A DNA stretch of 64,000 bases from contig CAWIED010000004.1 in NCBI GenBank assembly GCA_963835085.1, forward strand, positions 72,508 to 136,507, in the 5' to 3' direction. The notes under the pieces were generated by a model. The model searched no databases. It was not told the DNA's origin and saw nothing but the letters and a program-made list of their open reading frames with translations. This DNA is from an uncultured Actinomycetota bacterium (GTDB lineage Bacteria; Actinomycetota; Actinomycetes; Actinomycetales; CAWJMD01). The position numbers and the translations under genes were made by a program. This document shows, piece by piece, positions 1 through 19,441 of this stretch. The first letter of the stretch is position 1. Each line of letters begins with the position of its first letter.

Positions 1-1731
1 TTGGCGACAACTACTGATGACCTCTCCACGATCGCCCTGTGGCAGACAGCTATCGGCCTGCCCGGCAATTCGCTGTTCCAAGGTGATCTGCCAGTCGGAA
101 CGCCGGGCGATGTTCTCAAGGCGCGGCAGCGGCTCGAAGAACTGACCGCCGCCGACGTCCTCAACGACAGAGAACGGTCGATGGATGCCGCCGGACTCCT
201 TGACGATGCGCTCGCCTCGCTGGACCAGCGAGCGGTCCGGATCTTGGAGCTTCGGCTGTTTGCAGATAGGCGGCTCAGTCTTGATGAAGTCGGACGGGAG
301 TTTGGCGTGACCCGTGAACGCGTCCGGCAGGTTGAGGGCAGAGCCCGGACCGCGATGCTTGATGCCATCTCAGCGGGGCAGCTCGACCTGGTTGCCTCTG
401 CTGCCCGATCTTTGATCGGCACGGTTCGTCCCTTGTCGGACCTCCTGCAACTGATGCCTGCGCTCGGACGCGAGGTCGCGCTCGTTGCCCAACCGGTCTG
501 GCGTGTCCTCGATCGCCTCGATGACGCTTATGAAATCGAAGATGGGTGGTGCGTCGTTCCGACCCTCAGCGCTGCCCAGGATTGGACGTCGACCCAGCTT
601 CGGGAGCGTGCTAATCAGTATGGAGTCGTCTTGCTGGACGAGCTGGACCTCATCGAGACGAGCGCTCCAGATGATCTGGGTGCCCTGACGACGCAGTGGC
701 TGGAACGTTGTGGCTATGTCATCCACGGTGGCCACGTTCTGACGCGTACCCAGTCGGTCGGAGACTACGCGGCAGCCATCTTGTCGATCTGCGGTGAACC
801 AGTGGGCGTTCAGGAGATAATCAACCGATTCCGCTTCGAACGGACGACTGGCTCCCTCAGGAACGCCATGAGCGTTGACGACCGCTTCGAGCGTGTGGAC
901 CGTGATCGCTGGGCGCTGCGTGAATGGGGCATGGATGCATACGCCAGCATCAGGTCGGTTATCCGTATGGAGCTTGCCAAAGCTGGCGGCACGATCCCGA
1001 TCGACACACTCGTGGAGCGGATCGCCGGCACCTACTCCGTCACCAGCAGTAGTGTCATCGCGTATGCCAGTACCCCGCCGTTCGAGCTGCGCGGCGGGGT
1101 CGTCCGTCCCGCAGGTACGTCTCGGGCGGCGCGCAAGCCACCCGAGCGCACCGCCCGCCTCTACCGGCGGGGTCAGTCGTGGATCTACCGGGTGTGCGTC
1201 AGTCACGATCACCTGCGGGGCAGCGGCTTCGTCGCACCGGTAGCGGTCACCACAATCTTAGGAATGGAGTTCGGCGACAAGATTCAGCTGAGTTCAGAAC
1301 TCGGTGATCAGTTGATCCGCTGGAACGGAACGCAGCCAGCCTTCGGCACAATTCGCCGTTACCTGCTGGAGTACGACGTGGCAGCGGAGACCGAGGTCTT
1401 CTTGGTGATGAGTGACGACCGCCGTTTTGACGTCGACGTTGTCGAAGATTTGACCGGCGATCCCCTGTCCGACGCATTGGCGCTCGTCGGCGCCCGGCGA
1501 GACCTGTCCTGCGAGGCGGCTAGACAAGCTCTGGAGGCGGCCGTTGGGCTTCCCGAGGACTCTCCCGTCGTGAGCATGATCGGTACCTATCGTGACCGGG
1601 GTGATGGCGATGTTGCGGACCTGCTTACGGCGGTTCGGTATCACCTCGAAACGGGGGAGCCGCCCGGGGAGCCGCCGAAGCGAACGATCCGGTCTACCGA
1701 CGTCGACGACATAATGGACCTGCTGTCATGA
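1..1731 (+). CDS. Sigma-70 region-4-like HTH domain protein (576 aa); first gene of the PT-associated operon; may be 5'-truncated by the window edge (TTG at position 1)
   Basis: Long ORF with high GC3. The segment RAVRILELRLFADRRLSLDEVGREFGVTRERVRQVEGRA resembles the sigma70 region 4 HTH. Its stop overlaps the next start (ATGA at 1728-1731). Confidence 0.65.
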   Translation: MATTTDDLSTIALWQTAIGLPGNSLFQGDLPVGTPGDVLKARQRLEELTAADVLNDRERSMDAAGLLDDALASLDQRAVRILELRLFADRRLSLDEVGREFGVTRERVRQVEGRARTAMLDAISAGQLDLVASAARSLIGTVRPLSDLLQLMPALGREVALVAQPVWRVLDRLDDAYEIEDGWCVVPTLSAAQDWTSTQLRERANQYGVVLLDELDLIETSAPDDLGALTTQWLERCGYVIHGGHVLTRTQSVGDYAAAILSICGEPVGVQEIINRFRFERTTGSLRNAMSVDDRFERVDRDRWALREWGMDAYASIRSVIRMELAKAGGTIPIDTLVERIAGTYSVTSSSVIAYASTPPFELRGGVVRPAGTSRAARKPPERTARLYRRGQSWIYRVCVSHDHLRGSGFVAPVAVTTILGMEFGDKIQLSSELGDQLIRWNGTQPAFGTIRRYLLEYDVAAETEVFLVMSDDRRFDVDVVEDLTGDPLSDALALVGARRDLSCEAARQALEAAVGLPEDSPVVSMIGTYRDRGDGDVADLLTAVRYHLETGEPPGEPPKRTIRSTDVDDIMDLLS

Positions 1732-3865
1732 CTGAACCAGCACCATCGGGTCTCCGCGGTCTGACGCTCGCTAGTCGCTATCGCAGCAACCGTGGAGACG
1801 TGGTTCAAGGCTTCTACTTGCCTGCGTTCGGAGTGGCCACAAGTTACAGCCGCGCCGTCGGCTACTTCACATCGACCAGTCTGGCGCTGTACTCGCGTGG
1901 AATCGAAACCTTCGCGGCGCGCGGAGGCAGGATGCGACTCATTGCATCGCCCCACTTCAGCGACGACGATGCACTGGACATCGAGCGGGGCTACGACATT
2001 CGGACGGTGATCGCCCGCGCGGCGGCGCGGGAGTTGGAGGCGGAGGAGCGTGACACCGTCCTCGATGGACTCGGGCTGCTGGGCCGGCTCATCGCTGACG
2101 AACGACTGGACATCAAGCTGGCGTTCGTCGAGCGGGGCGGTCGGGTCGGCATCTATCACGAGAAGCTCGGGATATTCCGCGACGCGGTCGGCGACCTCGT
2201 GGCGTTCACAGGTAGTAGCAATGAGACCCATGGTGGCCTTGCTGCAAACTTCGAATCGATCGAGGTCTACCGGGGTTGGGTCGATGGAGATGGCGTCAGG
2301 GCACTCAACCTGGAGCAAGACTTCGAAGAGCTATGGGCTAACCAAACCCCGTTCCTGAGCGTGGAGGACTTCCCTCACGTGGCTCGCGACCGTCTCCTTC
2401 AGCTCGGGCATGAACGCAGCCTTCCGCTGCCACCCAGGGACGACGCTCTGATCCCGTCAGAGGTGAGAGTCGATGAACCGTCGCGGCTGGCCATCCCAGG
2501 CCGACTGACAGTCCGGGAGTACCAGCGGACGGCCGTGGAATCGTGGCTGCGTAATCGTGCTCAAGGCATCCTCAAGATGGCTACAGGCACCGGTAAGACC
2601 AAGACATCAATGATCGCTGCAACAAAGTTGGCCGGCGTGCTGCAGCAGCGTGAGGAGCCACTCATCCTTCTCATACTTGCGCCGCTCCAGCACCTGGTCG
2701 ACCAGTGGATATCGGAGGTGGAGGACTTCGGTGTCCGTCCGATTCCGGTCTACGAGTCGAGTCACAAGTGGCTGCGCCTGGTCGAAGAGCAACTCACGCA
2801 AGTGCGATTGGGGCGGCGGCCTTTGTTATGGCGATGGTCGCAACCAACGCATCGTTCTCAGGTGCCAAGTTCCAGTCGATTCTCTCTCGGATCTCGCTCC
2901 CGATGCTGGTTATCGCCGACGAAGCTCACAACCTTGGATCCCCGACGTACCGGGCGTCACTGCCGTCAAATGCCACCTATCGGCTTGCTCTATCGGCGAC
3001 GCCCGAACGATGGTTCGACGACGAGGGGACCGATGCACTAGTCGACTACTTCGGTCCGATCGTCTACGAGCTTGGGCTCGGTGAAGCCATCGAGATGGGC
3101 GCTCTCTGTCGGTACAATTACCTGCCCCGACTTGTGGAGCTCAACCACGCAGAGACACAGCTTTATGTCGACCTCTCTGCGCAGATAGCTGCCTGCATCG
3201 CAGCCGGTGAAGAACCCGAGGACACTGATTCTGACTCGCCGCTTGGCCAGCTGCTTCGCAAGCGTTCCGGGGTGCTTGGACACGCGGCTGGCAAGCTCGC
3301 CACGTTGCGCCGGGACATCGGCGATCGCGCGGATGGCTGGTTCCAGCTCGTGTATTGCGCCGAGGGGAGCCGTCCGTCACCCGTAGGCGAGCCCTCGGGA
3401 CCAAACCAGCTCCGCGACGTGATGAGGGTTGTCGGCAACGAACTGCGCCTCGCTGCGCACTCCTACATCTCCGAAACACCAAGGGCGGAGCGCAAGGCGC
3501 TCCTGCGCCGTTTTGCGACCGGCGACGACCTGCGCGTCCTGGTCGCCATGCGCTGCCTGGATGAGGGCGTGGATATCCCCGACGCACGGGCGGGCTACCT
3601 GCTGGCCAGCAGCAGCAATCCTCGCCAGTTCATCCAACGGCGGGGTCGACTGCTGCGCCGCGCCGATGGCAAGGAGCATGCCGAAATCCTCGACTATCTC
3701 GCTGTGCCGCCCGCCGGGACTCCGTTCAACTTCGAAATCGAGCGGCGCCTGCTGACGCGAGAACTTGAAAGAGCGAACGAGTTCGGAAAACTGTCGGAGA
3801 ATTACGAAGCCACCCTAGAAATTCTGCGTCCGCTGAAGGACCGCTATCAGCTGATGCACCTCTGA
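1728..3865 (+). pseudogene. PLD(HKD)-nuclease / SF2 DEAH-helicase fusion (type III Res-like; resembles the family PGAP names 'DNA phosphorothioation system restriction enzyme'); reading frame broken by a 1-nt deficit at the G-run 2810-2813
   Basis: Two ORFs (1728..3041 and 2705..3865) join into one protein. HKD motif GIYHEKLGIFRD...GSSNET. Helicase motif I MATGTGKTKT, motif II IADEAHNLG, motif III LSATPER, motif VI QFIQRRGRLLRR. Total length 2138 nt equals 3n+2, consistent with one missing base. Confidence 0.8.
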
Positions 3866-3888
3866 GAGCAATGTGATGAGACGGAAGG

Positions 3889-4059
3889 ATGCAGCAAGTG
3901 ATTATTGATCGCACGGAAGAACAGGTGGTACAGGAGCTAACCGACGATGAGCGCGCTCTACTCAAGAGGGTCCTGCAGATCGAGCGCGCCAAGCTCCATG
4001 TCAGCGCCTACGAGCCGACCGACGACCTGCTGGCCGTCGTGAAGGAGATCTTGCCGTGA
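3889..4059 (+). CDS. Small hypothetical protein (56 aa), below the ORF-track cutoff
   Basis: ATG at 3889 preceded by GGAAGGA. High-GC3 codons. Its stop overlaps the GTG start of the next gene (GTGA at 4056-4059). Fills the otherwise empty gap between the helicase and ATPase genes. Confidence 0.4.
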   Translation: MQQVIIDRTEEQVVQELTDDERALLKRVLQIERAKLHVSAYEPTDDLLAVVKEILP

Positions 4060-6110
4060 AGCTGCACCGGATCACGCTGACGAACTTTCGCCAGTTCAAG
4101 GGCGAGCAGCCTTTCGACCTGCGGTCGGACACGCTAATGCCAGTTACGCTGCTCTTCGGTGCCAACGGTGCGGGAAAGACGACACTCCTCAACGCTTTTA
4201 CCTGGGCGCTCTACGGCTCGCTGTCTGATGATCTCGAGCAGCAGGAGCGCCTCGTCACCGACAGTGTCTGGCGAGCAACTGCCGCGGGTGGCTCGGCAAG
4301 TGCCAGCGTGGAGCTGGTCTTCGATCACGAGGGTCAGGGCTACCGTCTACGCCGGCGGATTACGCTCCGCAAGGAGGGTGACCACCAGGCGAAGGCAGCA
4401 CCCGAAGTGCAGTTGTGGATGACCTCGTCGGACGGCTCTTCCGAGATTGTGGGAGCGCCTCAGGAGAAGATCCAGTCGATCCTGCCTCGCAGTATCAGCC
4501 GCTTCTTCTTCTTCAACGGGGAGCGTATTGAGAAGCTCGTTGAGAAGAGCGCGTATAGCGAGGTTCAACAGGACATCAAAGTGCTACTGGATCTGGAACA
4601 GGTCGAGCGAGCGCTTGCCCACCTTCCAAAGGTGGATCGGAAACTAACGGCGGATATCCGTAAGCATGGCGGGGACAAAGCCAGCGATATCCAGAACGCG
4701 ATCGACCAACTTGGCGAACGTGAGTCAAGCTTCCGCGATGAGCAGAAGATCCTTGAGGGTGACCTTGCGACCCTGAACAAGGAGCGCGAGGAGGTCACCG
4801 AGTTGCTGCGGCAACATGACGCTGCAGCTCCCATACAGGCGCAGAGGGATTCCGTCACCCGGCAACTCGAGGAGACGCGGATTGGACTCGACACTGCGGT
4901 GAAGGAGCGTGCGAACCTCATCGCAACACGGGGATTTCTGGCATTCACCGAGGAGCTCGGCGACGCAACCGGTTCGATGGCCGAGCAGCTGTACGAACGG
5001 GGTGCCCTGCCGGCTCCTCTCAAGCGTGAGTTCGTCGACCAGTTACTCGATGAGGGCATCTGCATTTGCGGTACGGGTTTGGCGGAGCACAGCGAGCCAT
5101 GGAAGCACGTAACGGAATGGCGTCAGCGAGCTGGACTGCAGGCGGTCGAGACCGCGTGGCAAAAGCTGAGCGGTCAGATCGAGCCGATGGCGGCGGCGCG
5201 GAGCGACCTGCGAGAGGCTCTCGGACGGATTGTGAAGCGGATCGGCGATCTTCGCGACAGCATCGCCGAACTGGAGGAGACGAAGTCCGAGCTCGATGGC
5301 AAGCTGCGCGACAGCCGGCTGGAGGATGTTCAGGCGCTGGAGTCGAAGCGGATCGACCTCGACAACCGACACGGCGAGAAGCAGCGCCGGATCGGTGCGG
5401 TAGCAAGTGATCTCCAGCGGATTGCAAAGGACATCCAGCACAAGGTCCAGGAACTCAAGAACGCAGAGGTGACTGACGAACTGGCCGCCAAGGCGCGAGC
5501 GCGCTCGGACATGGTCAGGAACGTCAAGCGTGCGCTCGAAGAAATCTTGGAGATCCGTTCAGAGCGGATGCGTCAGCGCCTCGACGCCGAACTCAAGTCG
5601 ATCTACAGGAGTATCACGTACAAGAACTACGTCCCGGCGCTCAGCGAGTCGTTTGAGCTGACCCTGCATACCAATGTGGACGGCGTGCTACTGCCCGTCG
5701 GCAAGTCCACCGGCGAGAACCAAATCCTCAGTCTGAGCTTCGTCGCCGCAGTCTCCAAGCTTGCTCGTGAGATCCGCAAGGAGCGCCGGGCGGAGGGCGA
5801 GTCCGCCGAGGACGCAGGCACCTACCCCATCGTGATGGATGCCGCGTTCGGGTCGCTCGACGAGAACTACCAGGAGTCCGTAGCGCGCGTGCTCGCTCGG
5901 ATGGCTCCCCAGTTGGTAGTGCTGGTGAGCAAGAGCCAGGGACTCGGAAAGGTGGTCGCCGAACTGGGCCCGTACGTCAGCCACCTTGGGGTCATTGAGG
6001 TCCACAGCAGCCTGACAGGTGCCGATGAAGACATTGAGTTGCGCGGACATGGCTATCCATACATCCGCCACGCCGAGACCGACTACGCCCTGCTTAAGGA
6101 GATTCAGTGA
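4056..6110 (+). CDS. SMC/ABC-type ATPase, DndD-like paralogue (684 aa)
   Basis: N-terminus MKLHRITLTNFRQFKG...LLFGANGAGKTTLLNAFTWALYG (Walker A). Long coiled-coil-like E/L/R-rich middle region. C-terminal signature-like STGENQILSL and Walker B/D-loop YPIVMDAAFGSLD. Same layout as DndD at 10569. Confidence 0.85.
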   Translation: MKLHRITLTNFRQFKGEQPFDLRSDTLMPVTLLFGANGAGKTTLLNAFTWALYGSLSDDLEQQERLVTDSVWRATAAGGSASASVELVFDHEGQGYRLRRRITLRKEGDHQAKAAPEVQLWMTSSDGSSEIVGAPQEKIQSILPRSISRFFFFNGERIEKLVEKSAYSEVQQDIKVLLDLEQVERALAHLPKVDRKLTADIRKHGGDKASDIQNAIDQLGERESSFRDEQKILEGDLATLNKEREEVTELLRQHDAAAPIQAQRDSVTRQLEETRIGLDTAVKERANLIATRGFLAFTEELGDATGSMAEQLYERGALPAPLKREFVDQLLDEGICICGTGLAEHSEPWKHVTEWRQRAGLQAVETAWQKLSGQIEPMAAARSDLREALGRIVKRIGDLRDSIAELEETKSELDGKLRDSRLEDVQALESKRIDLDNRHGEKQRRIGAVASDLQRIAKDIQHKVQELKNAEVTDELAAKARARSDMVRNVKRALEEILEIRSERMRQRLDAELKSIYRSITYKNYVPALSESFELTLHTNVDGVLLPVGKSTGENQILSLSFVAAVSKLAREIRKERRAEGESAEDAGTYPIVMDAAFGSLDENYQESVARVLARMAPQLVVLVSKSQGLGKVVAELGPYVSHLGVIEVHSSLTGADEDIELRGHGYPYIRHAETDYALLKEIQ

Positions 6111-6580
6111 CGATCCCGCCCGCCGATGTCCGCATCCGGCGCCCCCAAGAGCATGAACGGCTCATGAAGGAACTTCAGGACGCGGAAGGTGGCTTTGGTA
6201 CCTTCCGCGACATTCTGTTGCTGTCTGCCGCCGTCGGGTACCGGTTCGAGCGCAGGGTGGCCTTCACCAAGACGGCCGGGGATCCGATCCGCTACGAGAC
6301 CTTAACAGGGCCGGCTTTCGGAGAAACGCTGGTCAACATGATGGCTGCGAACGTCGCAGAGGATGATCCGGAGATCATGGATGCGAATCGGATCGAGGAG
6401 CGGATCACGATCTTCGAGGAGTACGCCAATGGAGGGCTGGAGTACATCCAGGAGCAAGTCAACGTGCGCCATCAACCTCCGGCGCTCGTAGTCGGTGACC
6501 TAGTCTCTGAGGCGCTCGGCGATAGCAGAGGCGCCACTCGCGCCTCAGTCGACGAACTGCTTGGCGGTGTGAGTTGGTAA
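6107..6580 (+). CDS. 157-aa protein, probably the 'DNA phosphorothioation-associated protein 4' type family (assignment from memory, not verified)
   Basis: ORF translationally coupled to the ATPase gene (GTGA overlap at 6107). Last gene of the operon; ends 16 bp from the convergent dndA stop. Confidence 0.55.
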   Translation: MTIPPADVRIRRPQEHERLMKELQDAEGGFGTFRDILLLSAAVGYRFERRVAFTKTAGDPIRYETLTGPAFGETLVNMMAANVAEDDPEIMDANRIEERITIFEEYANGGLEYIQEQVNVRHQPPALVVGDLVSEALGDSRGATRASVDELLGGVSW

Positions 6581-6596
6581 CCGGAAGTGGCTGATG

Positions 6597-7790
6597 CTAG
6601 ACGCTGATGAGTGCTGCGAGCCGGTCGACGAGATCGCGGAGCGGGATATCAACGGTCTGCGGGCCCCACGACAGTCGGAGCGCTCCTGCCACGCGTTCTG
6701 GTTCGTATCCAGCCGCGACCAGAACATGGCTTGGCTCGTAGCTCTGGCTAGTGCAGGCTGACCCGTTTGACAACGCAACGATATCTTTCAGTGCTACGAG
6801 CGCTGCTTCGGAGTCGATGCCGGGGATGGAGAAATTCAAGGTGCTGGCCATTGTCCGAAGCGGGTCACCGTTGAGCTGAGCACCTAGTGGAGTCAACGCC
6901 GCGAGGAGCTGTTGCTTTATTGCCGCGGCCTCCTCTGTGTAGGCGCGGACTTCTTTTTGTGCGATCGCAGCGGCGGTGCCAAGACCTGCTATTAGGGCGA
7001 CTGGGAGAGTTCCGGGTCGGAGTCCGCGCTCTTGGCCGCCCCCATACATCAGTGGGGTGAGTGGGGGGCGTTGGTAGCCGCGGCGGCGGGTGATGAGACC
7101 GCCGATGCCCTTGGGCGCGCCGATCTTGTGACCCGAAAATGCGAGTAGGTCGATACGTGGGTTCTGCAGCAGGGTAATCAGCTTGCCGTATGCCTGGGCG
7201 GCGTCGACGTGGAAGTACGCGTCGTGTCCGTCAAGTACTTGGGCGATGCCTTCGATCGGCTGGATGACGCCAGTCTCGTTGTTGACAGCCATCACCGAGA
7301 CCAGCAACGTGTCGGGCCGGAGGGCCTCGGCGACGGCCTCCGCTGAGACCCAGCCTCCATGGTTGGGTGGCAGTAGCGTGATCTCGAAGCCTTGCTTGTC
7401 GAGGGCTTCGAGTGGCTCTAGAACGGCCTTGTGTTCGATTTGGGTAGAGATGATGTGCTTCTTGCCGTGGGCTTCACCGTGGGGAGCGAGTCCGAGGATG
7501 GCGAGGTTGTCGCTCTCTGTAGCGCCACTGGTAAAGACGACTTCGTCGGGCTTGGCGGCGACCACGGCTGCCACCTGGTCGCGTGCCTGGTTGACCCTGG
7601 CTTTGGCGATCTGGCCGTAGCTGTGTGTTCGGCTGCCCGCGTTGCCGAACTCCAGTGTCATGAAGCGCATGACCTCCTCGGCCACGCGCGGGTCGACCGG
7701 CGCCGTGGCGTTGACGTCCAGGTAGGTCGGTCGTCGCGGGCCTCCGGCGGCTCGCTGATCGGCCTTGTCGGAGGTGCTCGCTACTGTCAT
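6597..7790 (-). CDS. dndA: Cysteine desulfurase DndA (IscS/NifS class V aminotransferase)
   Basis: PLP-lysine motif FSGHKIGAPKGIGGL and active-site Cys loop LSNGSACTSQS. Start chosen at the ATG at 7790 (MTVASTSDK...) because the longer ORF extension is not protein-like. Divergent from dndB. Confidence 0.88.
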   Translation of the reverse strand: MTVASTSDKADQRAAGGPRRPTYLDVNATAPVDPRVAEEVMRFMTLEFGNAGSRTHSYGQIAKARVNQARDQVAAVVAAKPDEVVFTSGATESDNLAILGLAPHGEAHGKKHIISTQIEHKAVLEPLEALDKQGFEITLLPPNHGGWVSAEAVAEALRPDTLLVSVMAVNNETGVIQPIEGIAQVLDGHDAYFHVDAAQAYGKLITLLQNPRIDLLAFSGHKIGAPKGIGGLITRRRGYQRPPLTPLMYGGGQERGLRPGTLPVALIAGLGTAAAIAQKEVRAYTEEAAAIKQQLLAALTPLGAQLNGDPLRTMASTLNFSIPGIDSEAALVALKDIVALSNGSACTSQSYEPSHVLVAAGYEPERVAGALRLSWGPQTVDIPLRDLVDRLAALISV

Positions 7791-7879
7791 GTTTGGAAGC
7801 CTAGCCGCTGTACGGATCGTTGTTTGGATTGTTCGCATGGAGTGTTTGGAAGTGGATCCAAACATGGTAGGACTGGAGT
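7791..7879. promoter_or_regulatory. Divergent dndA/dndB intergenic region with repeated GTTTGGA boxes (candidate operator/promoter)
   Basis: GTTTGGA at 7791, 7822 and 7844, plus the inverted copy TCCAAAC at 7857. Together 7844-7863 forms the palindrome GTTTGGAAGTGGATCCAAAC. The 89-bp region is more AT-rich than its flanks. Confidence 0.35.
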
Positions 7880-9037
7880 ATGGCAGGGACGGGATCGATC
7901 GACCGGGCGCTGGTGACCGTGCCGCCAAGCGCGCGGGCGGGGGAGTTTGAGTACGTCTTTCCGGCGATCCGTGGTGTCCAGGCTGGCCACGTGTACTACG
8001 TGACGATGTGTCCGCTCCGTATCATTCCACGCCTCTTCCTGTTCAACGAGGAGGAGTTGCCGCCTGAGATGCGCGCCCAGCGATCGCTGAACAAGAACCG
8101 CGTGCCGGAGATGGCCCGTTACATCGTGGAGAACCCGGACAGCTACATCTTCTCGGCGTTGACCGCCAGCGTGAACGCGGATGTGCGCTTCGACTCGTTG
8201 CTGGGCGGCAGCGGTGCGACGGAGCGTATCGGGACGCTCACGATCCCGATGTCGGCCACCTTCGTCATCAACGATGGTCAGCATCGGCGCGCGGCCATCC
8301 AGCAAGCACTCACGGAGAACCCATCCCTGGGTGAGGAGACGATTGCCATCGTGATGTTCATCGACGTCGGACTGCGCCGCTGCCAGCAGATGTTCGCGGA
8401 CCTCAACCGCTACGCGATCCGTCCGGCGCCTTCGATCGGTGTGCTCTACGACCATCGCGATCCCATGGCTGAGATCACCCGGCAGGTCGTGACCAGCACC
8501 CCGTTCCTGCGGGACGTCACCGACATGGAGAACAGCAGCTTGGCGCAGCGATCCCGCAAGCTCTTCACGCTCTCCTCGCTGCACACGGCCAATGCCTCGC
8601 TGCTTGAGGACATCGAGGTTGACAACTTCGACGAGCGCGTGCGGCTCGCACGCGCGTACTGGCATGCGGTGGCCGGTCAGTTTCCACATTGGCAGCAGGT
8701 CTACCGCGCGGAGATCACCGCGGGTGAGGTGCGTCGTGACTTCATTCACACTCACAGCATCGTTCTGCATGCTCTCGGCCGGATCGGCAACGCGCTACTG
8801 CGCCAGAGCGTCGATCCCACGACCTGGACTAGGACTCTCTCGGAACTGGGCAGCATTGACTGGCATCGTGCCAATGCCGCAGTGTGGGAAGGCCGCGCAA
8901 CATCGGGCGGAACCGTGAGTAAGAGCCGTCGCAACGTTGAACTGACTACCGCCCATATCCGGACTGTCCTCGGGCTCCCGCTGCCACCTGATGAGCAGCG
9001 CGCCGAGGACGCTTTCGTTGGAGGAGACACGAAGTGA
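7880..9037 (+). CDS. dndB: DndB (DGQHR-domain PT regulator)
   Basis: FVINDGQHRRAAIQ (DGQHR motif). N-terminus FPAIRGVQAGHVYYVTMCPLRIIPRLFLFNEEELPPEMRAQRSLN is typical of DndB. Stop overlaps the dndC start (GTGA). Confidence 0.9.
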   Translation: MAGTGSIDRALVTVPPSARAGEFEYVFPAIRGVQAGHVYYVTMCPLRIIPRLFLFNEEELPPEMRAQRSLNKNRVPEMARYIVENPDSYIFSALTASVNADVRFDSLLGGSGATERIGTLTIPMSATFVINDGQHRRAAIQQALTENPSLGEETIAIVMFIDVGLRRCQQMFADLNRYAIRPAPSIGVLYDHRDPMAEITRQVVTSTPFLRDVTDMENSSLAQRSRKLFTLSSLHTANASLLEDIEVDNFDERVRLARAYWHAVAGQFPHWQQVYRAEITAGEVRRDFIHTHSIVLHALGRIGNALLRQSVDPTTWTRTLSELGSIDWHRANAAVWEGRATSGGTVSKSRRNVELTTAHIRTVLGLPLPPDEQRAEDAFVGGDTK

Positions 9038-10572
9038 CCACCAGCTTGCCGATCCGTCCGCGTTCTGCGTTCGACGAACTGGGCTTTTCCAGCACCGTGG
9101 ATGCGCTGGTTGCGCAGACGCAGCAGCTCTACCTCGCGGACAGTGTGCCCTGGGTGGTTGGCTACTCCGGCGGCAAGGACTCGACGGCCACACTGCAGCT
9201 CGTCTGGCTCTCGCTGGCGCGTTTGAGCCCGAACCAGCGCACCAAGCCGGTACATGTCATCAGCACGGACACGCTGGTGGAGAACCCTGTCGTCGCCGCG
9301 TGGGTGACCCATTCCCTCGACGTGATGGCTGAGGCTGCCGAGGAGCAGGGTCTGCCCTTGACGCCGCACCGGCTGACGCCTGCGGTCACCGACACCTTCT
9401 GGGTCAACCTCATTGGCCGCGGATACCCGGCTCCTCGTCCGAAGTTCCGCTGGTGCACCGAACGGCTCAAGATCAAGCCGTCGAACGCGTTCATCCGCGA
9501 GATGGTGCGGTCCCATGGCGAGGCCATCCTCGTGCTCGGCACCCGCAAGGCCGAGAGCTCGGGACGGTCATGCGCGCATGGCCGCGCTGGAGTCGCGTCG
9601 CGTCCGCGACCTACTCAGCCCGAACGACTCGCTCCCGAACTGCGCTGGTGTATTCGCCGGTCGAGAACTGGTCGAACGATGACGTGTGGACGTTCCTCAT
9701 GCAGTCGCCCAACCCGTGGGGCTACTCCAACAAGGAGCTGCTCACGATGTACCAGGGCGCCTCGGCCGATGGTGAGTGCCCACTGGTGGTCGACTCCAGC
9801 ACACCCAGCTGCGGCGATAGCCGTTTCGGCTGCTGGACCTGCACGCTCGTGGAGAAGGACAAGTCAATGTCGGCCATGATCCAGAACGACGAAGAGAAGG
9901 AGTGGATGCTGCCACTCCTGGAGCTGCGCAACGCGCTCGACGTCGCCGGACGATCGCCACTTGCGTGACTTCCGCCGGATGAATGGCTCGGTGCAGCTCT
10001 TCCATGACAAGACCATCCCCGGGCCGTACACACAGACCGCGCGGGAGGACTGGCTGACTCGACTGCTTGAGGCGCAGGCGTGGATTCGGGAGAACGGCCC
10101 CGACTACGTGAACTCCCTCGATCTGGTCACGCTTGCTGAGCTTGAGGAGATCCGCCGCATCTGGGTTGTCGATAAGCACGAGTTCGAAGACAGCCTGCCT
10201 CGGATCTATGAGAAGGCAATGGGCGAGCCGTACTCGGGCGGTAAGCTCGACGAGCACCTGCCGCTCGGTGCAGACATGATTGAGTCTCTGCACGCCGTGG
10301 CGGGCGGCGACCGACTGCACTTCGAACTAGTACGCGAACTACTCGACATCGAGCAGCGCCACCGCGCCCAGGTGCGACGCTCAGGACTCTTCGACTCCCT
10401 GGAGAAGGCCCTCCGCAAGGGCTTCTACGACGACGAAGAGGACGCCACGTTGCGTGCGCAACGCCGCAAGGCTGCCATGGAACGCGCACCCGACTCGCCC
10501 CCGGACACCGAGCCCGATCCGCTCGATGTGGCGGACGGGTACGTGCGGGCAGTAGCGGAGTCGACGCCGTGA
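9034..10572 (+). pseudogene. dndC: DndC (PAPS-reductase-like PP-loop ATP pyrophosphatase with Fe-S cysteines), split by three +1 frame changes
   Basis: PP-loop VVGYSGGKDSTATLQLVW. Conserved text continues across the three frames: ...GTRKAESS / ARMAALESRRVRDLLSPNDSLPN / LVYSPVENWSNDDVW...CPLVVDSSTPSCGDSRFGCWTC...LLELRNALDV / DDRHLRDFRRMNGSVQLF... Shifts are near 9561-9563, 9641-9646 and 9948-9949. First and last segments share a frame. Confidence 0.85.
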
Positions 10573-12539
10573 TCCTCGGAAAGCTGGTCCTGCACAATGT
10601 CGGCACCTTCGCTGGGCGTCAGGTAGTCGACCTGACACCGGTGTCTGAAACAAAGCCAGTAGTCCTGATCGGAGGCCTGAACGGCGCTGGAAAGACAACG
10701 ATCCTAGAAGCTATCCAACTCGCGCTCTACGGGTCGCTGGCACACGCCTCCGGACGACGCGCTGGCAGCTACGAGAACTACCTCCGCAGCCTCATCCACC
10801 GCGGCGTGGCTGCCAGTGAGGGAGCAGCCATAGAACTCAACTTCACGGCTCATCAGGAAGGCCAAGAGCACACCTACTGGATTCGCAGGAGTTGGAAGGC
10901 GACCGGCTCCTCGATTCGGGAGATCTTGCTGGTCGCCGTCGATGGCAAGCACAACCAGTCACTCGGCAGTACCTGGAACGAGCACATCGAAACCTTCCTG
11001 CCGCGCGGTATCGCCGGGCTCTTCTTCTTCGACGGTGAGCAGATCGAGGCACTCGCCGATCTCGATCGTTCCCGACAGGTCCTGGGTTCGGCCCTTGCGG
11101 CCTTGCTTGGTCTGGACCTGGTCGAACGGCTGTCGACCGATCTCTCGGTGTTGCGACGTCGTCACCATGGCGAGCAGGTGCCAGAGAGCCTGCGCCGGAG
11201 CCTGGAGGAGAAGAAGCAATTGGTCACCGCCCTGCGTCAGGCCGAAGAAGCTGCGATCGAAGCGGTCGCTGCACGCCTCACCGAACTCGAACGGTGCCAG
11301 AAGGTCTTCCACGAGGTGACCGAGGCGCACCGGTCCGCGGGCGGCGATTTGGTGGAGCGTCGTGAGGCGTTGGAGGCATCGGCGGCCATGGTGCGGTCAG
11401 GACTTGCTCGTGCCGAGGACGACATCCGCCACGAGCTGGCGGAACTGACGCCGCTGCTGCAGGTGCCAGTTCTCCTTGATCAACTCCGCTCCCAAGCCGA
11501 GATGGAGGCGGCGGCCACGCGGGATCGGCTGTTGGTCGAAGCCCTCGTAGCGCGGGATGACACGCTGATGCAACAGCTCACGGAGGCCAAGGTCAAGACC
11601 TCTACGCTCGTCGCTGTCCAAGAGTTCCTCACGAGGGACCGGCAGAAGCGTCAAGCGTCAGCCGCGACCGGGGCGATCCTCGGATTCGGCGATCACCTGG
11701 CTCTTGAGAACCTGATGTCTGCACTTCCGGAGTCGCGGAAACGGCTGCAGGCTGCGACTAGGCGTCGGTCCGATGCGAAGGCCGAACTTGATCAGGCGGA
11801 GCGCATGCTCGCTGCAATCCCTGACCCGGAATCGCTGGCGCCATTGAACCGGGCTCGTGAAGAAGCCCGTGAGGCGATGCTGCGGGCTGAAGCGGCACAC
11901 AATTTCGCAACCGAGTTGCTGACAACGGCGGCCGCAGATCGCGCTAAGGCAACCGGCGCCTACGAGTCGGCGCTCGACAAGGCGGCTCACGCTAACCTCG
12001 CCGCTGACGACGACCGCCGACTGGTCGAGCATGTCGATCGTGTCCGCGCCACGCTGGAAAATTTGCGGGTCACCGCCACCCGACGCCATCTGGACCGCAT
12101 CTCACAACTCGTTCTAGAGGCTCTCGGCATGCTCCTGCGCAAGCAGAAACTTGTCACGGACGTCAAGATCGACCCCGAGACCTACACGGTCTCGCTCACG
12201 GGCGTCGACGGGCACGCATTGCCAGCCAAAGAGCTCTCTGCAGGAGAGCGTCAACTGCTGGCCGTCGCACTGCTCTGGGGCCTGGCACGAGCCGCCGGCC
12301 AGCCCCTGCCGGTCGTGATCGACACGCCACTGGGCCGCCTCGACGGATCTCACCGAGAGCACCTGCTCATGCGGTACTTTCCGCACGCCAGCCACCAGGT
12401 TGTGTTGCTGTCCACGGATACCGAGATCGATGAGGAGGCTTACGACCTGATCGCACCACGCATCGGTCGCAGCTACCACTTGGAGTTCGACCAGGAAATC
12501 AACGCGACGTTCGTCGACGACGGCTATTTCTGGAGCTGA
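10569..12539 (+). CDS. dndD: DndD (SMC-like ABC ATPase of the PT modification complex)
   Basis: MILGKLVLHNVGTFAG...LIGGLNGAGKTTILEAIQLALYG. Signature LSAGERQLLAVALLWGL. Walker B LPVVIDTPLGRLD. GTGA overlap with dndC. Confidence 0.9.
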   Translation: MILGKLVLHNVGTFAGRQVVDLTPVSETKPVVLIGGLNGAGKTTILEAIQLALYGSLAHASGRRAGSYENYLRSLIHRGVAASEGAAIELNFTAHQEGQEHTYWIRRSWKATGSSIREILLVAVDGKHNQSLGSTWNEHIETFLPRGIAGLFFFDGEQIEALADLDRSRQVLGSALAALLGLDLVERLSTDLSVLRRRHHGEQVPESLRRSLEEKKQLVTALRQAEEAAIEAVAARLTELERCQKVFHEVTEAHRSAGGDLVERREALEASAAMVRSGLARAEDDIRHELAELTPLLQVPVLLDQLRSQAEMEAAATRDRLLVEALVARDDTLMQQLTEAKVKTSTLVAVQEFLTRDRQKRQASAATGAILGFGDHLALENLMSALPESRKRLQAATRRRSDAKAELDQAERMLAAIPDPESLAPLNRAREEAREAMLRAEAAHNFATELLTTAAADRAKATGAYESALDKAAHANLAADDDRRLVEHVDRVRATLENLRVTATRRHLDRISQLVLEALGMLLRKQKLVTDVKIDPETYTVSLTGVDGHALPAKELSAGERQLLAVALLWGLARAAGQPLPVVIDTPLGRLDGSHREHLLMRYFPHASHQVVLLSTDTEIDEEAYDLIAPRIGRSYHLEFDQEINATFVDDGYFWS

Positions 12540-12541
12540 CC

Positions 12542-12940
12542 ATGCCCATCGAACACATACGTCTTAGCCGACAGGCACGTGACCAGCTCATTACGCTGAA
12601 ACGACGCACCGGCATCCAGCACTGGAACGTCCTGTGCCGCTGGGCACTATGCCGCTCACTCGCCGAACCCGCACCACCACCAGCAACCAAGCTCACACTC
12701 GACAGCAACGTCGAAATGAACTGGCGGACATTCAGCGGCGAACTCGGCGACGCCCTCTGGGCACTCCTCCAGATGCGCTGCCACAACGACGGTCTGACAC
12801 TCGACGAAGAGACCCTAGCGCATCAGTTCAAGCTTCACCTCCACCGAGGCATCGGATACCTCGTTGGCGACCCACGAGTCACCGACGTCGTTGGACTCGC
12901 CAGCGTCGGACTCCAAGAGCCTGACGCACCCGCCGCATGA
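12542..12940 (+). CDS. dndE: DndE
   Basis: MPIEHIRLSRQARDQLITLKRRTGIQHWNVLCRWALCRSL matches the characteristic DndE N-terminus. Starts 2 nt after the dndD stop. Confidence 0.85.
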   Translation: MPIEHIRLSRQARDQLITLKRRTGIQHWNVLCRWALCRSLAEPAPPPATKLTLDSNVEMNWRTFSGELGDALWALLQMRCHNDGLTLDEETLAHQFKLHLHRGIGYLVGDPRVTDVVGLASVGLQEPDAPAA

Positions 12941-14424
12941 AGCCAGTCGCTGTCGCGCGACACAAGACCGCCCTCACCAGAACCGCCCTGTCGCGTCCGG
13001 TCGTGACCGCCATCGCCGATGGCCTTCTCGAGCCATCTGCGGCGATCTTCGACTACGGCTGCGGGAAGGGCGACGATATCCGCCACCTACGAGCCCGTGG
13101 CTTCGACGTGGATGGGTGGGACCCGACCCACCGACCCGCAACACCGAAGAGGTCCGCGCCTGTAGTGAACCTGGGCTACGTCATCAACGTCATCGAGGAC
13201 CCCACAGAACGCGCCACCGTCCTCCGGCAAGCATGGGCACTAACCGAAAAGCTCCTTATAGTGTCGGCGCGGATGCGCTGGGACGCTCGTGACCTTAGCG
13301 GTCGCCCTCTCGGGGACGGTCTCGTCACGCGGACTGGGACCTTCCAGAAGTTCTACCAACAGTCCGAACTCGCTGACTGGATCGAGGACACCGTCGGCGA
13401 GAAACCTCACGCCGCAGCACCGGGCATCTTCTATCTCTTCCGCGACGCCAGCGCCGCCCAACGTTTCCTGGCCTCCCGTGTCTACACCTACCGCCCCCGC
13501 GTCCACATCAACCCCCACGACCTCTACGAGACCCATCGTGAGGCGCTATCGCCACTCCTGAAGTTCATGCAGAACCACGCGCGACCCCCACGCGCTGGCG
13601 AAATCACTGATCACGATCACGCAGGAGTCCTCGCAGCTCTCGGCGGTATCGGTCGTGCTCAGCGACTAATCCGCGACGTCACCGACGACGCCTACTGGGA
13701 GGAAGTCACGCGCCGTCGCCGCAACGAACTCCTCATCTACATCGCACTCTCTCGTTTTGAGCGTCGACCCCGATTTTCGCATCTCGACCGCACTCTCGCC
13801 ACGGATGTTCGCGCCCTCTTCAGCAGCTACCAGGACGCCTGCCGCCAAGCCGACCGCCTGCTTCTTGCCTGCGGCGACCAAACGAGGCTCTACCTCCAAG
13901 CACGCAATTCGGCTATCGGCAAGCAGACGCCCAGCGCCTTATACGTGCATCGCTCCGCGATGGCCCTCACTTCACCGCTCCTTCAGGTCTACGAAGGTTG
14001 CGCTCGTGTCCTTGCCGGGACTATCGACCGCGCGAACATGATCAAGTTGTCGGTTACTCAACCGCAGATATCCTACTTAGCCTATCCCGAATTTGACCGC
14101 AAACCACACCCGACGCTCCAGACTGCAATAACCGTCAATTTGCGACAACTTACCGTACAGTGGCGTGACTATAGTAATTCCGATAATCCTCCACTTCTCC
14201 ACCGTAAAGAGGAATTTCTCGGCCCCGATCATCCAAAACGGAGACTGTACGAACGCCTGACGCGTGCCGAGATGCGTGCCGGTCTATATCAGAAGCCCGA
14301 GCAGATCGGCACTCTACTCGGATGGCAGGCGTCGCTTAGGGACGCGGGATATGTCCTTCGGGGGCATAAACTGATTCGCACCTGCGATCAACCATCGAGC
14401 CGTCCGGGTGCCCAACCCATGTAG
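12937..14424 (+). CDS. PT-associated putative SAM-dependent methyltransferase (495 aa)
   Basis: Motif I-like AIFDYGCGKGDDIRHLRARGFDVDGWDP. ATGA overlap with the dndE stop. Large C-terminal region of unknown function. Confidence 0.75.
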   Translation: MKPVAVARHKTALTRTALSRPVVTAIADGLLEPSAAIFDYGCGKGDDIRHLRARGFDVDGWDPTHRPATPKRSAPVVNLGYVINVIEDPTERATVLRQAWALTEKLLIVSARMRWDARDLSGRPLGDGLVTRTGTFQKFYQQSELADWIEDTVGEKPHAAAPGIFYLFRDASAAQRFLASRVYTYRPRVHINPHDLYETHREALSPLLKFMQNHARPPRAGEITDHDHAGVLAALGGIGRAQRLIRDVTDDAYWEEVTRRRRNELLIYIALSRFERRPRFSHLDRTLATDVRALFSSYQDACRQADRLLLACGDQTRLYLQARNSAIGKQTPSALYVHRSAMALTSPLLQVYEGCARVLAGTIDRANMIKLSVTQPQISYLAYPEFDRKPHPTLQTAITVNLRQLTVQWRDYSNSDNPPLLHRKEEFLGPDHPKRRLYERLTRAEMRAGLYQKPEQIGTLLGWQASLRDAGYVLRGHKLIRTCDQPSSRPGAQPM

Positions 14425-14610
14425 CGCAGCGTTAGCCAGTGGTCCTCCGAATCGCTCGCGCGAGGACTTGGACGCATCGCCGCGGGCGTGGAAGATGAGT
14501 CCCTTCTCCGGTCAGCCTATCGGCATGCCAGCCCGATCTCGACCGATTCAATTCGCCATCCCGAGATCGGTCTTTCGGGGACCACCGCTAACGCGGCGCG
14601 TCGTGGAGGC

Positions 14611-15453
14611 TCAGACCGTGCCGAGGGTCAGCTTGAACTTGTCAAGGGTCCAGGTCTCGAAGGGCAAGCCCAACAGTGCCGCGACCTCAGCCACCAGAAT
14701 CGGGTGAGCCACGCCACCGGAGCTCCAGTCATCCTTCACATCTTCGGTGATGAGGACCGCAGAGGAAAACGACGCGCCGCTCTCCTTCGCCTCCGACAGC
14801 CCTAGTAGAAAGTCAGCCCACACGAAGAAGTCACCGTCGCCGGGATCCTTGAAGCCGGGCGGGGTCCTGGTGCTATTGCGCACGCGCGCGAGGCGGGCGA
14901 ATCTGCTCCGGGGTACATAAGTGACCCGAGCTCGCGCGTCCAGCATCTCCCACAGATCCGTGAATCGCTCGACGGTCTTTGGGTCGTAGAGGTAGCCGTA
15001 CTGAGCCTCGACATCTCTCAGGAGCTCCCCGAAGCGCTCTTGCAACTCCTCGGCAAAATTTGCCTTAGAAAGCTCCTTCGCCAAGCTATCGTACTTCTTC
15101 TGGACCGCTTTGGAGACTGTGTCAATAACGGGGACCGTGTTATTCCAGAACTCTTGGACCACCTGTCCGGGTACAACCAGTGGTGCTTCGTGGGATGTTT
15201 CAAGGTAGTCGCGTAGGTCCGTCGTCTTCGGATCGGCTCTAGCCATCCGCAACACGATGTTCGTGTCGAGGCCGAACGCCGTCTTGGAAATGTCGGAAAT
15301 TCCTTCGGCGCCCGAGCTGCGCCGCGACAGCGAGGTCTTAAGCGCGCTAAGCGACTGGAGTGGGTCGGCGCGATCAAGAACACGCTCGACCCTGTCGACG
15401 AGCTGGTCGGTTACGCGGCGCCCTGCTTCGGCGCTGGGCTCAGTACCAGACAT
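14611..15453 (-). CDS. PIN-like domain protein (DUF4935-like)
   Basis: FGLDTNIVLRM (N-terminal acidic PIN motif) and C-terminal PPGFKDPGDGDFFVWADFLL...AVLITEDVKDDW. Start set at the ATG at 15453; it overlaps the upstream gene's end by 43 nt. Confidence 0.6.
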   Translation of the reverse strand: MSGTEPSAEAGRRVTDQLVDRVERVLDRADPLQSLSALKTSLSRRSSGAEGISDISKTAFGLDTNIVLRMARADPKTTDLRDYLETSHEAPLVVPGQVVQEFWNNTVPVIDTVSKAVQKKYDSLAKELSKANFAEELQERFGELLRDVEAQYGYLYDPKTVERFTDLWEMLDARARVTYVPRSRFARLARVRNSTRTPPGFKDPGDGDFFVWADFLLGLSEAKESGASFSSAVLITEDVKDDWSSGGVAHPILVAEVAALLGLPFETWTLDKFKLTLGTV

Positions 15454-18043: not shown

Positions 18044-18622
18044 TCAGCCGCTCCATCCCTCTCGCAGAGCGGTGGGCGTCCAGGCTGGCCAGCTCGCAGA
18101 GCCGATGAGCGCGCCGTGCTCGAACGAGGCGCAGAGGCGGAACGGGGCGCGCGCGCTGCTGTTGTCGAGCACCTCCGCCACGTCTGCGATCCGGATCGCT
18201 TCGCCGATGTGATCCCATAGGCGCTCATAGCGGTCGCGGATCTTCTGCTTCGGAACGGCATGGCCGCCGCGGCGCACTCGCTCAAGGACGCGCTGCACGG
18301 TGAGCTCGACAGGAACGATGATCACGTGCAGGTGCACGAGGTATCCGGCGTCGGCGGCGTCGGCGACGAGTTGGACCTTGCTCGGGTGCGAGAACACCGT
18401 CTCGGAGATGAACGACGCACCCTCGGCAATCCGGCCCCGACGCTGGGCCTCAGCGATCCGCGCCGCCTCGTAGGCGTGCTCGGCCTGAGCGTCGGGCCAC
18501 CGTTCGGCGGCGATCTCGTCGGCGTTGATGAATGGCAGGCCGGTCGCCGGCGTCAGGACGTCGTGCACGTAGCTCGACTTCCCCGCACCGTTTGGGCCAG
18601 CAAGAAGGTGCAGCAGTGGCAT
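18044..18622 (-). CDS. Zeta-toxin-like P-loop kinase/ATPase (COG4185-like) toxin
   Basis: MPLLHLLAGPNGAGKSSY (Walker A). 192 aa. Start overlaps the stop of the upstream small gene (TGATG). Confidence 0.7.
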   Translation of the reverse strand: MPLLHLLAGPNGAGKSSYVHDVLTPATGLPFINADEIAAERWPDAQAEHAYEAARIAEAQRRGRIAEGASFISETVFSHPSKVQLVADAADAGYLVHLHVIIVPVELTVQRVLERVRRGGHAVPKQKIRDRYERLWDHIGEAIRIADVAEVLDNSSARAPFRLCASFEHGALIGSASWPAWTPTALREGWSG

Positions 18623-18981
18623 CAGCCGCGAGCCGGGTGGACGATCAGGTTGCCGTCCTCGTCGGCCTCGGAGTACGACTCACCGCCGGCCGCGAACCGC
18701 GCCGCGTAGTCCAGCCCGTCCCGTAGCTCCGTCATGCGAGCGGCCCATTCCTCGCGGATGATGGCCTGCTCCCGCTCACCGAGCGAGTCGTAGGACCCCG
18801 TGCCGGTGAGGACCCTGACGATCTGCCGGTGGTTCACCCGCGGCGACATCTCCAGCTCGCGCCCGATACGCGCCCAGTGCGCGATCTGCTGCGGCACCGT
18901 CCGGGATGTGACGCGCGCCGCTGCGAGGGCGGACTCATACACGTCCGCGGGGAGCCGGGTCGGCTGGCTTGCCCTGGTCAT
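18622..18981 (-). CDS. ParD-like antitoxin (119 aa)
   Basis: Start at the ATG at 18981 (MTRASQPTRLPADVYESALAAARVTSRTVPQQIAHWARIGRELE...). Translationally coupled to the toxin gene. The longer ORF extension is R/P-rich and unlikely to be real. Confidence 0.55.
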   Translation of the reverse strand: MTRASQPTRLPADVYESALAAARVTSRTVPQQIAHWARIGRELEMSPRVNHRQIVRVLTGTGSYDSLGEREQAIIREEWAARMTELRDGLDYAARFAAGGESYSEADEDGNLIVHPARG

Positions 18982-19073
18982 GCAACCAGTGTAGCGCCGT
19001 GCTACCCGATTGCTGCGACGCGCAGCTCGTCGACGAGGCTTGCCAGGACGCACCGGCCGAGGAGCGCGCGGAC

Positions 19074-19441
19074 ATGCTGCCCGCCCTCGAGGACGCCCTA
19101 CAGGCCCTCTGCAACGCGGGGGAGCAGTGGCACCAGGCACACGCGCCCCCAGGTCAGGACGCAAGCTCGGCCGAGCTGCGCGCCTACCAGGACGTGATCG
19201 AGGCCCAGGCCGAGCAGGAGGCCGCCGCGGAGGAGAGCTTGCGCCGCCGCTATGCCGAGGCGTTCGCGGTCTATGCCGAGCGGTTCACCGCCGCCGTCCT
19301 CGACGCGGCCACGGCTCTTGCCGGGCTCACGGTGCCGGTCGAGGTGCGGGCTGAGGTCGATCCAGCCGCGCCGTGGTGGGACGTCGAGCGCGGGACACCA
19401 TCAACCCGCAGGAGTGGGACGAGGACGACGAGCTCGCGTGA
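19074..19441 (+). pseudogene. Hypothetical protein, apparently missing 1 nt at the G-run 19392-19394
   Basis: High-GC3 ORF MLPALEDALQAL...AAPWWDVERG continues in another frame as DTINPQEWDEDDELA-stop with near-perfect GC3. No recognisable family. Confidence 0.3.

Follow-up and report, generated by a model that had tools for sequence, protein, structure and literature searches.

Which defence system stands beside the DNA phosphorothioation genes of an uncultured Actinomycetota bacterium, and how much of it is new? The question is raised by the first 6580 nucleotides (nt) of a 64,000-nt stretch of contig CAWIED010000004.1 (hereafter the window), where five co-directional genes on the + strand run up to dndA and dndBCDE, the genes for phosphorothioate (PT) modification of DNA, and a methyltransferase gene. 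A preliminary description of the window had read the five genes as a candidate PT-dependent restriction module of unusual composition, that was either a fifth type of PT-sensing effector or a Pbe-type system in bacterial form. Our reading, to which we assign a probability of roughly 55% with the proposed working included, is that the locus is an actinobacterial PbeABCD system by dndA, dndBCDE and the methyltransferase gene, extended at its 5′ end by the gene of a 741-aa DNA-binding subunit, referred to below as the sigma-like protein. The Pbe core beside dnd is already known and is recognised by PADLOC, and the locus is not a new class of PT-dependent defence; the sigma-like partner is what is new.

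The layout of the locus is largely as first described. Stop and start codons overlap in three places (ATGA at 1728, GTGA at 4056 and GTGA at 6107), and the last gene ends 16 nt (6581–6596) before the convergent open reading frame (ORF) of dndA (Table 1). The early domain calls hold too, namely a Sigma70_r4 helix-turn-helix (HTH) in gene 1, PLDc_2, ResIII and Helicase_C in gene 2, and a DndD-like ATP-binding cassette (ABC) ATPase in gene 4. Two gene lengths had to be revised, however. Gene 1 had been taken to encode 576 aa, but it is cut by the window edge, which falls at about residue 166 of a full protein (P0001, 100% identical) of 741 aa, with relatives of ~735 aa. Gene 2 had been taken as a single ORF, but in the window it is split by a frameshift into ORFs 1728–3041 and 2705–3865, which lie in two frames. 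All five are real genes, each being conserved at 41–85% identity and in unchanged order in 38 other genomes. A consensus scan found no promoter- or terminator-like sites inside 1–8200 above shuffled expectation, which is weakly in favour of the five genes forming one transcription unit.

Judged by profile matches, size and order, genes 2–5 are a bacterial PbeABCD system. The halves of gene 2 reach 397 and 412 bits against PADLOC PbeA models (profile positions 2–358 and 352–679); the match to TIGR04095 (‘DNA phosphorothioation system restriction enzyme’) is split as well (2–108 and 109–451), and the intact 711-aa PbeA reaches 533 bits against this model, slightly below its cut-off of 600. With PLDc_2, ResIII and Helicase_C, PbeA combines a phospholipase D (PLD) nuclease with a superfamily 2 (SF2) helicase and its helicase-C domain, although the ORF is frameshifted in the window. 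Its motifs comprise a single HKD motif at 2157–2183 (HEKLGIFRD), GSSN at 2211–2222, Walker A GTGKT at 2586–2600 and DEAH at 2918–2929. The 56-aa PbeB has no family or profile match and is assigned by position and size only, as a protein of ~50–70 aa between pbeA and pbeC; its gene overlaps the pbeC start, and 38 loci have it in the corresponding place with 61–82% identity. Gene 4 scores 876 bits against the PADLOC PbeC model, compared with 142 bits against TIGR03185 DndD (cut-off 246), and carries a Walker A motif at 4158–4181, a CIC zinc-hook motif at 5061–5069 and a signature motif at 5712–5723. The two cysteines of the CIC motif (aa 336–338), C336 and C338, are invariant in eight diverse PbeC proteins from bacteria and archaea; the product of gene 4 is thus not DndD but a coiled-coil ABC ATPase carrying a CxC zinc hook. 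Directly after pbeC, gene 5 encodes a protein of the expected ~150 aa which matches TIGR04062 (dnd_assoc_4) with 75.5 bits (cut-off 74.25), and PF27807 matches PbeD orthologues. The DndE-like label of PbeD is taken from the literature (PMC10853773) and not from our own BLASTP comparison, in which PbeD showed no similarity to the DndE of the window.

The PbeABCD system described by Xiong et al. consists of a PLD-ResIII-helicase, a 66-aa protein, an AAA_23 ATPase and a 152-aa protein. All four genes are reportedly needed for PT-dependent protection of a haloarchaeon, and 235 pbeAC pairs were reported in bacterial genomes. A 2024 re-analysis (PMC10853773) describes PbeABCD as a CxC ABC-ATPase system, in which PbeA joins an HKD endoDNase to an SF2 helicase, PbeB is small and evolves fast, PbeC is the CxC ABC ATPase and PbeD a DndE cognate. 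Genes 2–5 match PbeABCD one to one in domains, size and order, and dnd genes adjoin in both cases. There are two differences, however: the characterised system is archaeal, with dndCDEA and without dndB, whereas the window has dndA, dndBCDE and a methyltransferase gene, and the operon in the window is headed by a fifth, translationally coupled gene encoding a sigma-like protein with multiple HTH units and a B3-like domain. This partner is not among the CxC/Pbe partners given by Xiong et al. or by the 2024 re-analysis, a comparison outside which the 2020 CxC description of Krishnan et al. lies. Profile searches of the kind the preliminary description had pointed to (PADLOC PbeA and PbeC, TIGR04062 dnd_assoc_4) all returned matches, and together with the literature they refute the fifth type of effector and uphold the bacterial Pbe system. 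The suspected novelty of composition is therefore lost for four of the five genes and stands for gene 1.

Other PT-linked effectors, DndFGH, SspE and SspFGH, hold the same place in genomes, next to PT modification genes, but have no homology to the five proteins. No DndF/G/H or Ssp models are among the matches listed for these proteins (for PbeC, the best 25 of 125), and SspE-type models match only a separate GmrSD-like gene at 15411–17057. DndF/G/H models are also absent from the PADLOC and NCBIfam matches listed for the eight proteins scanned from 1–17057, a scan that is not a systematic search of the whole window.

In the sigma-like protein itself, no catalytic domain (nuclease, ATPase or methylase) and no ligand-sensor domain were found. 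The only Pfam domain above threshold is Sigma70_r4 (PF04545, 39.4 bits, cut-off 24.1, aa 70–117 of the window product), accompanied by a weak match to RNA_pol_A_CTD. The recognition helix of this region-4 HTH, VTRERVRQVEGRA, is of the primary-sigma type; a profile of the protein matches sigma region 4 only among PDB sequences (E about 1e-9), and Foldseek returns the sigma region 4 structure 1ku7 (TMt 0.71). Members of the sigma-70 family combine region 2 with region 4, and here region 4 only was detected, with scores against sigma NCBIfam models far under their cut-offs (e.g. 43 bits for RpoH, cut-off 323). Since region 2 is absent, the protein is, on its domain content, not a sigma factor. 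Its N-terminus holds a helix-hairpin-helix (HhH) resembling the C-terminal domain of the RNA polymerase alpha subunit (alpha-CTD), for which rpoA models reach E ~1e-8 in a relative from Aurantiacibacter, a stronger match than in the window protein.

The remaining domains were predicted from structure models. An AlphaFold (AF2) model of P0001 (mean pLDDT 78.9) shows a helical N-terminal domain, a disordered linker (139–162), the region-4 HTH, about four winged-helix units (292–535), a beta-rich domain (~524–646) and a helical C-terminal domain. Whole-model Foldseek matches in PDB were sigma region 4, a tandem winged-helix protein, plant B3 domains and the N-terminal domain of LlaJI.R1, the winged-helix array matching a tandem winged-helix UFL1/DDRGK1 chimera. 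One winged-helix unit (nt ~850–927, RFERVDRDRWALREWG) has a HARE-HTH match below the cut-off (E 0.0076, 17 bits), and its ending, RF-x-RV...W-x-L-x-x-W, is one that we take to resemble the HARE-HTH hallmark. For the C-terminal 247 residues, a separate model (mean pLDDT 87.7, pTM 0.73) gave 28 top Foldseek matches in PDB which were all B3 or DNA-binding pseudobarrel domains, the N-terminal domain of LlaJI.R1 included. TMt values were 0.43–0.54 for most stand-alone B3 domains, 0.29–0.31 for three weaker matches and 0.19–0.24 for the larger ARF DNA-binding domains; the Foldseek probability was 0.82–1.0 in 21 of the 28 and lower in seven, with E-values of only 0.01–0.6, and BfiI came at rank 44. 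Two motifs of the B3-like barrel, DHLRGSG and QPxFGTIRR, are invariant. The sigma-like protein is thus predicted to be non-enzymatic and to bind DNA through modules of four kinds, one of them a B3-like barrel.

MzaA of the MzaABCDE defence system is similar in that it is a large (~700 aa) defence-operon protein whose recognisable part is a sigma region-4 HTH, and its model (NF041931) is the top NCBIfam model for the alphaproteobacterial Pbe-linked region-4 part and near-best for the window protein. Only the ~70-aa HTH aligns, however (37–69 bits, cut-off 800), and the partner genes differ; the window protein itself reaches 37.7 bits over profile positions 629–697 only and is not a full-length MzaA. 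The same likeness bears on one alternative, that the sigma-like protein mimics the contact modules of RNA polymerase (alpha-CTD and sigma region 4), serving as bait for phage proteins or as a coupling to transcription complexes and thereby licensing PbeA. The core conserved across phyla is exactly the pair of alpha-CTD-like domain and sigma region 4, the recognition helix differs little from that of primary sigma factors, and MzaA is the sigma-like component of another defence system. However, the same domains are ordinary DNA binders, direct evidence of mimicry is lacking, and the fusion proteins described below do without the alpha-CTD-like N-terminus. We regard mimicry as a long shot.

How constant is the association of the sigma-like gene with Pbe? 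An exhaustive profile search collected 801 family clusters (50% identity) at E ≤ 1e-30, mostly of 700–750 aa, and the named members of the 741-aa family are all Actinomycetota. The species-level genome scan yielded 45 loci, and exact look-ups added two more, one of which duplicates a locus of the scan. The full set of sigma-like protein, PbeA, PbeB, PbeC and PbeD is present in the same order at 38 actinobacterial loci. At 35 of these the sigma-like gene directly abuts PbeA on the upstream side, and the stop/start overlap between the two genes is seen in the window (1728–1731) and in annotated or called loci. The sigma-like protein is the fastest-evolving of the five (median identity 55%, compared with 66–74% for the others). 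A metagenome scan anchored on PbeC returned no confirmed loci, its patterns being too generic.

Beyond the Actinobacteria, plasmid genes annotated as ‘sigma factor-like helix-turn-helix DNA-binding protein’ accompany Pbe at 6 of the 14 bacterial plasmid loci examined, a sample that is small and was not drawn at random. In Ruegeria and Pontibrevibacter, plasmids carry a ~1020-aa sigma-like gene abutting PbeA, with dnd present, and a plasmid of Rhizobium sp. NXC14, also with dnd, has a 748-aa version ~200 bp upstream of PbeA. In Aurantiacibacter, a 437-aa sigma-like gene stands downstream of PbeD, with a methyltransferase present and no dnd. One L. plantarum plasmid type (pLtBDGP2C; locus L052, 3219–10494), which has no dnd genes, encodes a 1080-aa sigma-like protein whose gene has a stop/start overlap with PbeA, here reduced to a PLD-less helicase of 458 aa. 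Neither Pfam nor BLASTP revealed a PLD domain hidden in the 1080-aa protein, which would have accounted for the missing one. Across lineages, translational coupling of the sigma-like gene to PbeA extends over four bacterial orders, and in a fifth the gene stands just upstream. By hhalign (probability 96%, E 2e-9), the actinobacterial and Rhodobacterales proteins are homologous in sigma region 4 and the winged-helix array (291 columns); single sequences align over region 4 only. The family also occurs in other defence contexts without Pbe. Distant homologues in Demequina and Microbacterium (33–37% identity) do not adjoin Pbe or dnd, and in Demequina iriomotensis (locus L040, 9965–19735) a homologue with 37% identity converges on a Zorya-like gene set made up of an SNF2 helicase, an EH_Signature protein and two upstream ORFs.

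The main argument for a direct role in defence comes from a protein fusion. Mycobacterium sp. NS-7484 (NZ_MBEJ01000055.1; locus L037, 4244–11596) has a single 2451-aa frame adjoining dndA, dndBCDE and the methyltransferase gene, which encodes a superfamily 1 helicase (AAA_11, AAA_12), a REase_MTES_1575 nuclease and Sigma70_r4. The C-terminus is 53% identical to residues 208–740 of P0001, that is, from region 4 through the B3-bearing domain, and the five-gene cassette is present on the same contig on the opposite side of dnd. A 2134-aa relative is 32% identical to the 2451-aa protein over ~1500 residues and ends in the same C-terminal module; as it shares the architecture, the fusion is, by this comparison, recurrent and not an accident of assembly. 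The module is therefore found fused to a different helicase-nuclease in the same niche, which suggests that it serves effectors directly and is not a mere regulator. The helicase-nuclease part of the NS-7484 protein matches the PADLOC candidate PDC-S37 and the Hhe and Mokosh models, and the 2451-aa protein may be a separate, undescribed PT-associated effector.

The fusion bears most directly on the view that the sigma-like protein is a plain regulator, in which case the functional system would be plain PbeABCD. A primary-sigma-type region-4 HTH together with an alpha-CTD-like HhH would suit such a role, as would a gene that heads its operon, and many Pbe loci work or exist without the sigma-like gene. 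Apart from the fusion, however, the proteins are 741–1080 aa long with at least four DNA-binding modules, far above typical operon regulators, and have no ligand-sensor domain that we could find. The stop codon overlaps the PbeA start, and in Aurantiacibacter the sigma-like gene is at the 3′ end of the operon. Furthermore, a k-mer search upstream of the sigma-like gene in 21 loci, admittedly a crude test, found no shared operator-like motif beyond the start-codon region. A purely regulatory role therefore seems rather unlikely to us.

Restriction enzymes offer a model for a more direct role. BfiI, NgoAVII (R.NgoAVII) and CglI (R.CglI) use a B3-like domain to position a PLD nuclease, and cleavage by NgoAVII and CglI also needs a separate SF2 ATPase (PMC4267654, PMC4267653, PMC5737866, PMC3973309). 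The locus in the window has the same ingredients, namely a PLD-family nuclease, a B3-like pseudobarrel, an SF2 helicase-like ATPase and an adjoining modification function. By analogy with these B3/PLD enzymes, the sigma-like protein would be a DNA-recognition subunit rather than a mere regulator.

Starting from what the sequences show (homology, domains, the order and translational coupling of the genes, their frequent dnd neighbours and the module fusion), we propose the following working. DndA–E would place phosphorothioate marks on host DNA as a sign of self. PbeC, as a dimeric coiled-coil ABC ATPase with a CxC zinc hook, and the DndE-like PbeD would load on and scan DNA, while PbeA, driven by its SF2 motor, would translocate and act on unmarked or foreign DNA, presumably as a dimer given its single HKD motif. 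PbeB could be a small regulatory or trigger peptide. The sigma-like protein would join the complex as a stoichiometric subunit responsible for DNA recognition or loading of PbeA, possibly reading the modification state; as PbeA has no DNA-recognition domain of its own, recognition would be supplied by this partner. A wider version is possible but put forward tentatively. In it, many bacterial Pbe systems would be five-component machines whose fifth subunit, composed of promoter-contact modules like those of RNA polymerase (alpha-CTD-like and sigma region 4), winged helices and, in Actinobacteria, a B3-like barrel, would guide PbeA by reading the state of the DNA or its PT marks, or by sensing that a phage has taken over transcription.

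Several points weigh against this interpretation. Two archaeal loci lack the sigma-like gene, as do 8 of the 14 bacterial plasmid Pbe loci, including those of Priestia, B. thuringiensis, Leuconostoc and one L. plantarum type, and it is not mentioned for the system characterised in H. jeotgali. Since Pbe exists without it in archaea and at many bacterial loci, the gene is accessory and dispensable for core Pbe function. The B3 part is not demonstrable outside the Actinobacteria, and the Aurantiacibacter protein has only 437 aa. A regulator would also fit a gene that comes first and overlaps the next, and both pbeA and dndC are frameshifted in the window. Finally, Xiong et al. detected no DNA cleavage by the archaeal Pbe; this is disputed, the 2024 re-analysis (PMC10853773) arguing that the HKD nuclease must cut.

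Is the cassette dependent on PT at all? The link to PT made in the preliminary description is supported for the actinobacterial clade by gene neighbourhood, with dnd genes inside the fetched flanks (at full length 10 kb upstream and about 5 kb downstream) of 31 of the 38 cassettes, usually directly abutting. In the window, all five dnd genes and the methyltransferase exceed the curated NCBIfam cut-offs (Table 1). The methyltransferase gene, which matches TIGR04096 (‘DNA phosphorothioation-associated putative methyltransferase’), overlaps the dndE stop and accompanies the cassette in most actinobacterial loci. Four of the seven cassettes without dnd have <3.1 kb of downstream sequence; the other three, in Hoyosella, Actinocorallia and Rhodococcus ruber, have full flanks and no dndC, dndD or dndE, and the Hoyosella locus has a faint DndB Pfam match on a 722-aa product and another gene resembling those for structural maintenance of chromosomes (SMC) proteins close by.

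These three loci would fit an alternative in which the cassette is an autonomous CxC-ATPase system, perhaps with the TIGR04096 methyltransferase or with no modification, whose only tie to dnd is a common defence island. The versions of L. plantarum and Aurantiacibacter, without dnd nearby, point in the same direction, and in the literature 42% only of pbeAC pairs are near dndCD, while CxC systems occur without dnd and with methylases. Against independence stand the frequent and usually abutting dnd genes of the actinobacterial cassettes, as well as the PT dependence of the archaeal system, which was shown experimentally (Xiong et al.); we therefore consider it unlikely. Two further plasmids, of Rhizobium indigoferae (L051) and a member of the Sphingomonadaceae (L065), have Pbe-type genes beside an SspABCD-like set (DUF4007, a large ATPase, a PAPS (3′-phosphoadenosine 5′-phosphosulfate) reductase and a cysteine desulfurase) and not dndBCDE. 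Pbe modules may thus pair with the Ssp-type PT modification system too.

Whether the locus is functional in its source genome depends on the two broken genes. The frame of pbeA is disrupted by an extra TT at ~2822–2823; tblastn with an intact orthologue places the frame change between 2828 and 2843 of the window, between helicase motifs I and II. Logan contigs, assembled independently from sequencing run ERR11523670, show both genes unbroken. One of them is identical to window 351–7129 except for CCTG in place of CCTTTG and encodes an intact 711-aa PbeA, and removing two T’s from the window gives back the 711-codon ORF. The dndC of the window has three 1-nt insertions at ~9566, ~9641 and ~9943. 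A second Logan contig, matching window 7101–15469, encodes an intact 511-aa DndC and differs from the window by three 1-nt gaps and 14 substitutions, all within ~900 nt of dndC, with the remaining ~7.4 kb 100% identical. The substitutions fall mostly at third codon positions, as counted without translation.

One could take these frameshifts at face value, with pbeA and dndC as true pseudogenes and the locus dead in the source genome. One frameshift in pbeA and three in dndC would agree with this, all the more as no other convincing same-strand frame switch was found across the 64 kb by a codon-usage Viterbi scan, which replaced a GC3 frame plot (too noisy at 62% GC); rpoB and rpoC each read as one long ORF, and a Viterbi candidate at 37297 was rejected as the junction of cobA and CbiX genes. 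However, the independent Logan contigs are 100% identical outside these sites and carry both genes intact, on which ground real decay by co-inactivation of pbeA and dndC was rejected, and each out-of-frame segment is still 79–94% identical to homologues. The clustering of the dndC indels in a ~900-nt patch that also holds the 14 substitutions suggests a consensus that mixes strains or was insufficiently polished, or else a recombinant patch. A dead locus is therefore quite improbable, the frameshifts are probably assembly or strain artefacts, and we take pbeA and dndC to be intact at the level of the population.

The literature has not settled how Pbe tells that invader DNA is unmodified, nor whether the system cuts DNA at all. 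A conserved DNA-binding partner is an obvious candidate for the recognition step, and a five-component system, if true, would explain how Pbe distinguishes self from non-self. The finding also suggests that, in many bacteria, one component escapes the tools and papers that define Pbe by four genes. For tests on PT and non-PT DNA, the sigma-like protein offers a concrete target.

Table 1. Features of the Pbe and dnd region, in window coordinates.
Feature	Position	Strand	Remarks
Sigma-like gene	1–1731	+	Last 576 codons of the gene of the 741-aa protein; first ~165 codons outside the window
Sigma-70 region-4 HTH	208–351	+	Pfam PF04545
Winged-helix array, ~four units	379–1110	+	Predicted from model secondary structure, Foldseek and hhalign
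B3-like DNA-binding pseudobarrel	1075–1443	+	Predicted from domain model and Foldseek
pbeA	1728–3865	+	HKD nuclease fused to SF2 DEAH helicase; frame broken in the window
pbeB	3889–4059	+	56-aa small protein
pbeC	4056–6110	+	CxC coiled-coil ABC ATPase, DndD paralogue
pbeD	6107–6580	+	157-aa dnd-associated protein 4
dndA	6597–7928	-	Cysteine desulfurase; TIGR03235, 492 bits, cut-off 480
dndB	7880–9037	+	NCBIfam, 495 bits
dndC	9034–10572	+	NCBIfam, 664 bits (intact Logan copy)
dndD	10569–12539	+	NCBIfam, 592 bits
dndE	12542–12940	+	NCBIfam, 122 bits
PT-associated methyltransferase	12937–14424	+	TIGR04096, 620 bits

Further genes on the opposite strand follow the dnd cluster. A PIN_8/PIN_12 protein (14611–15510, - strand) is encoded next to the GmrSD_N protein at 15411–17057 (- strand), which matches the PADLOC candidate HEC-06 with 227 bits, ‘Orf5’ models and, weakly, SspE models. 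Together they may form another effector pair linked to PT or to modification. Beyond them, a zeta-toxin-like kinase (18044–18622) and a ParD-like antitoxin (18622–19164), both on the - strand and with ORF ranges sharing base 18622, form a toxin-antitoxin pair at the edge of the island.

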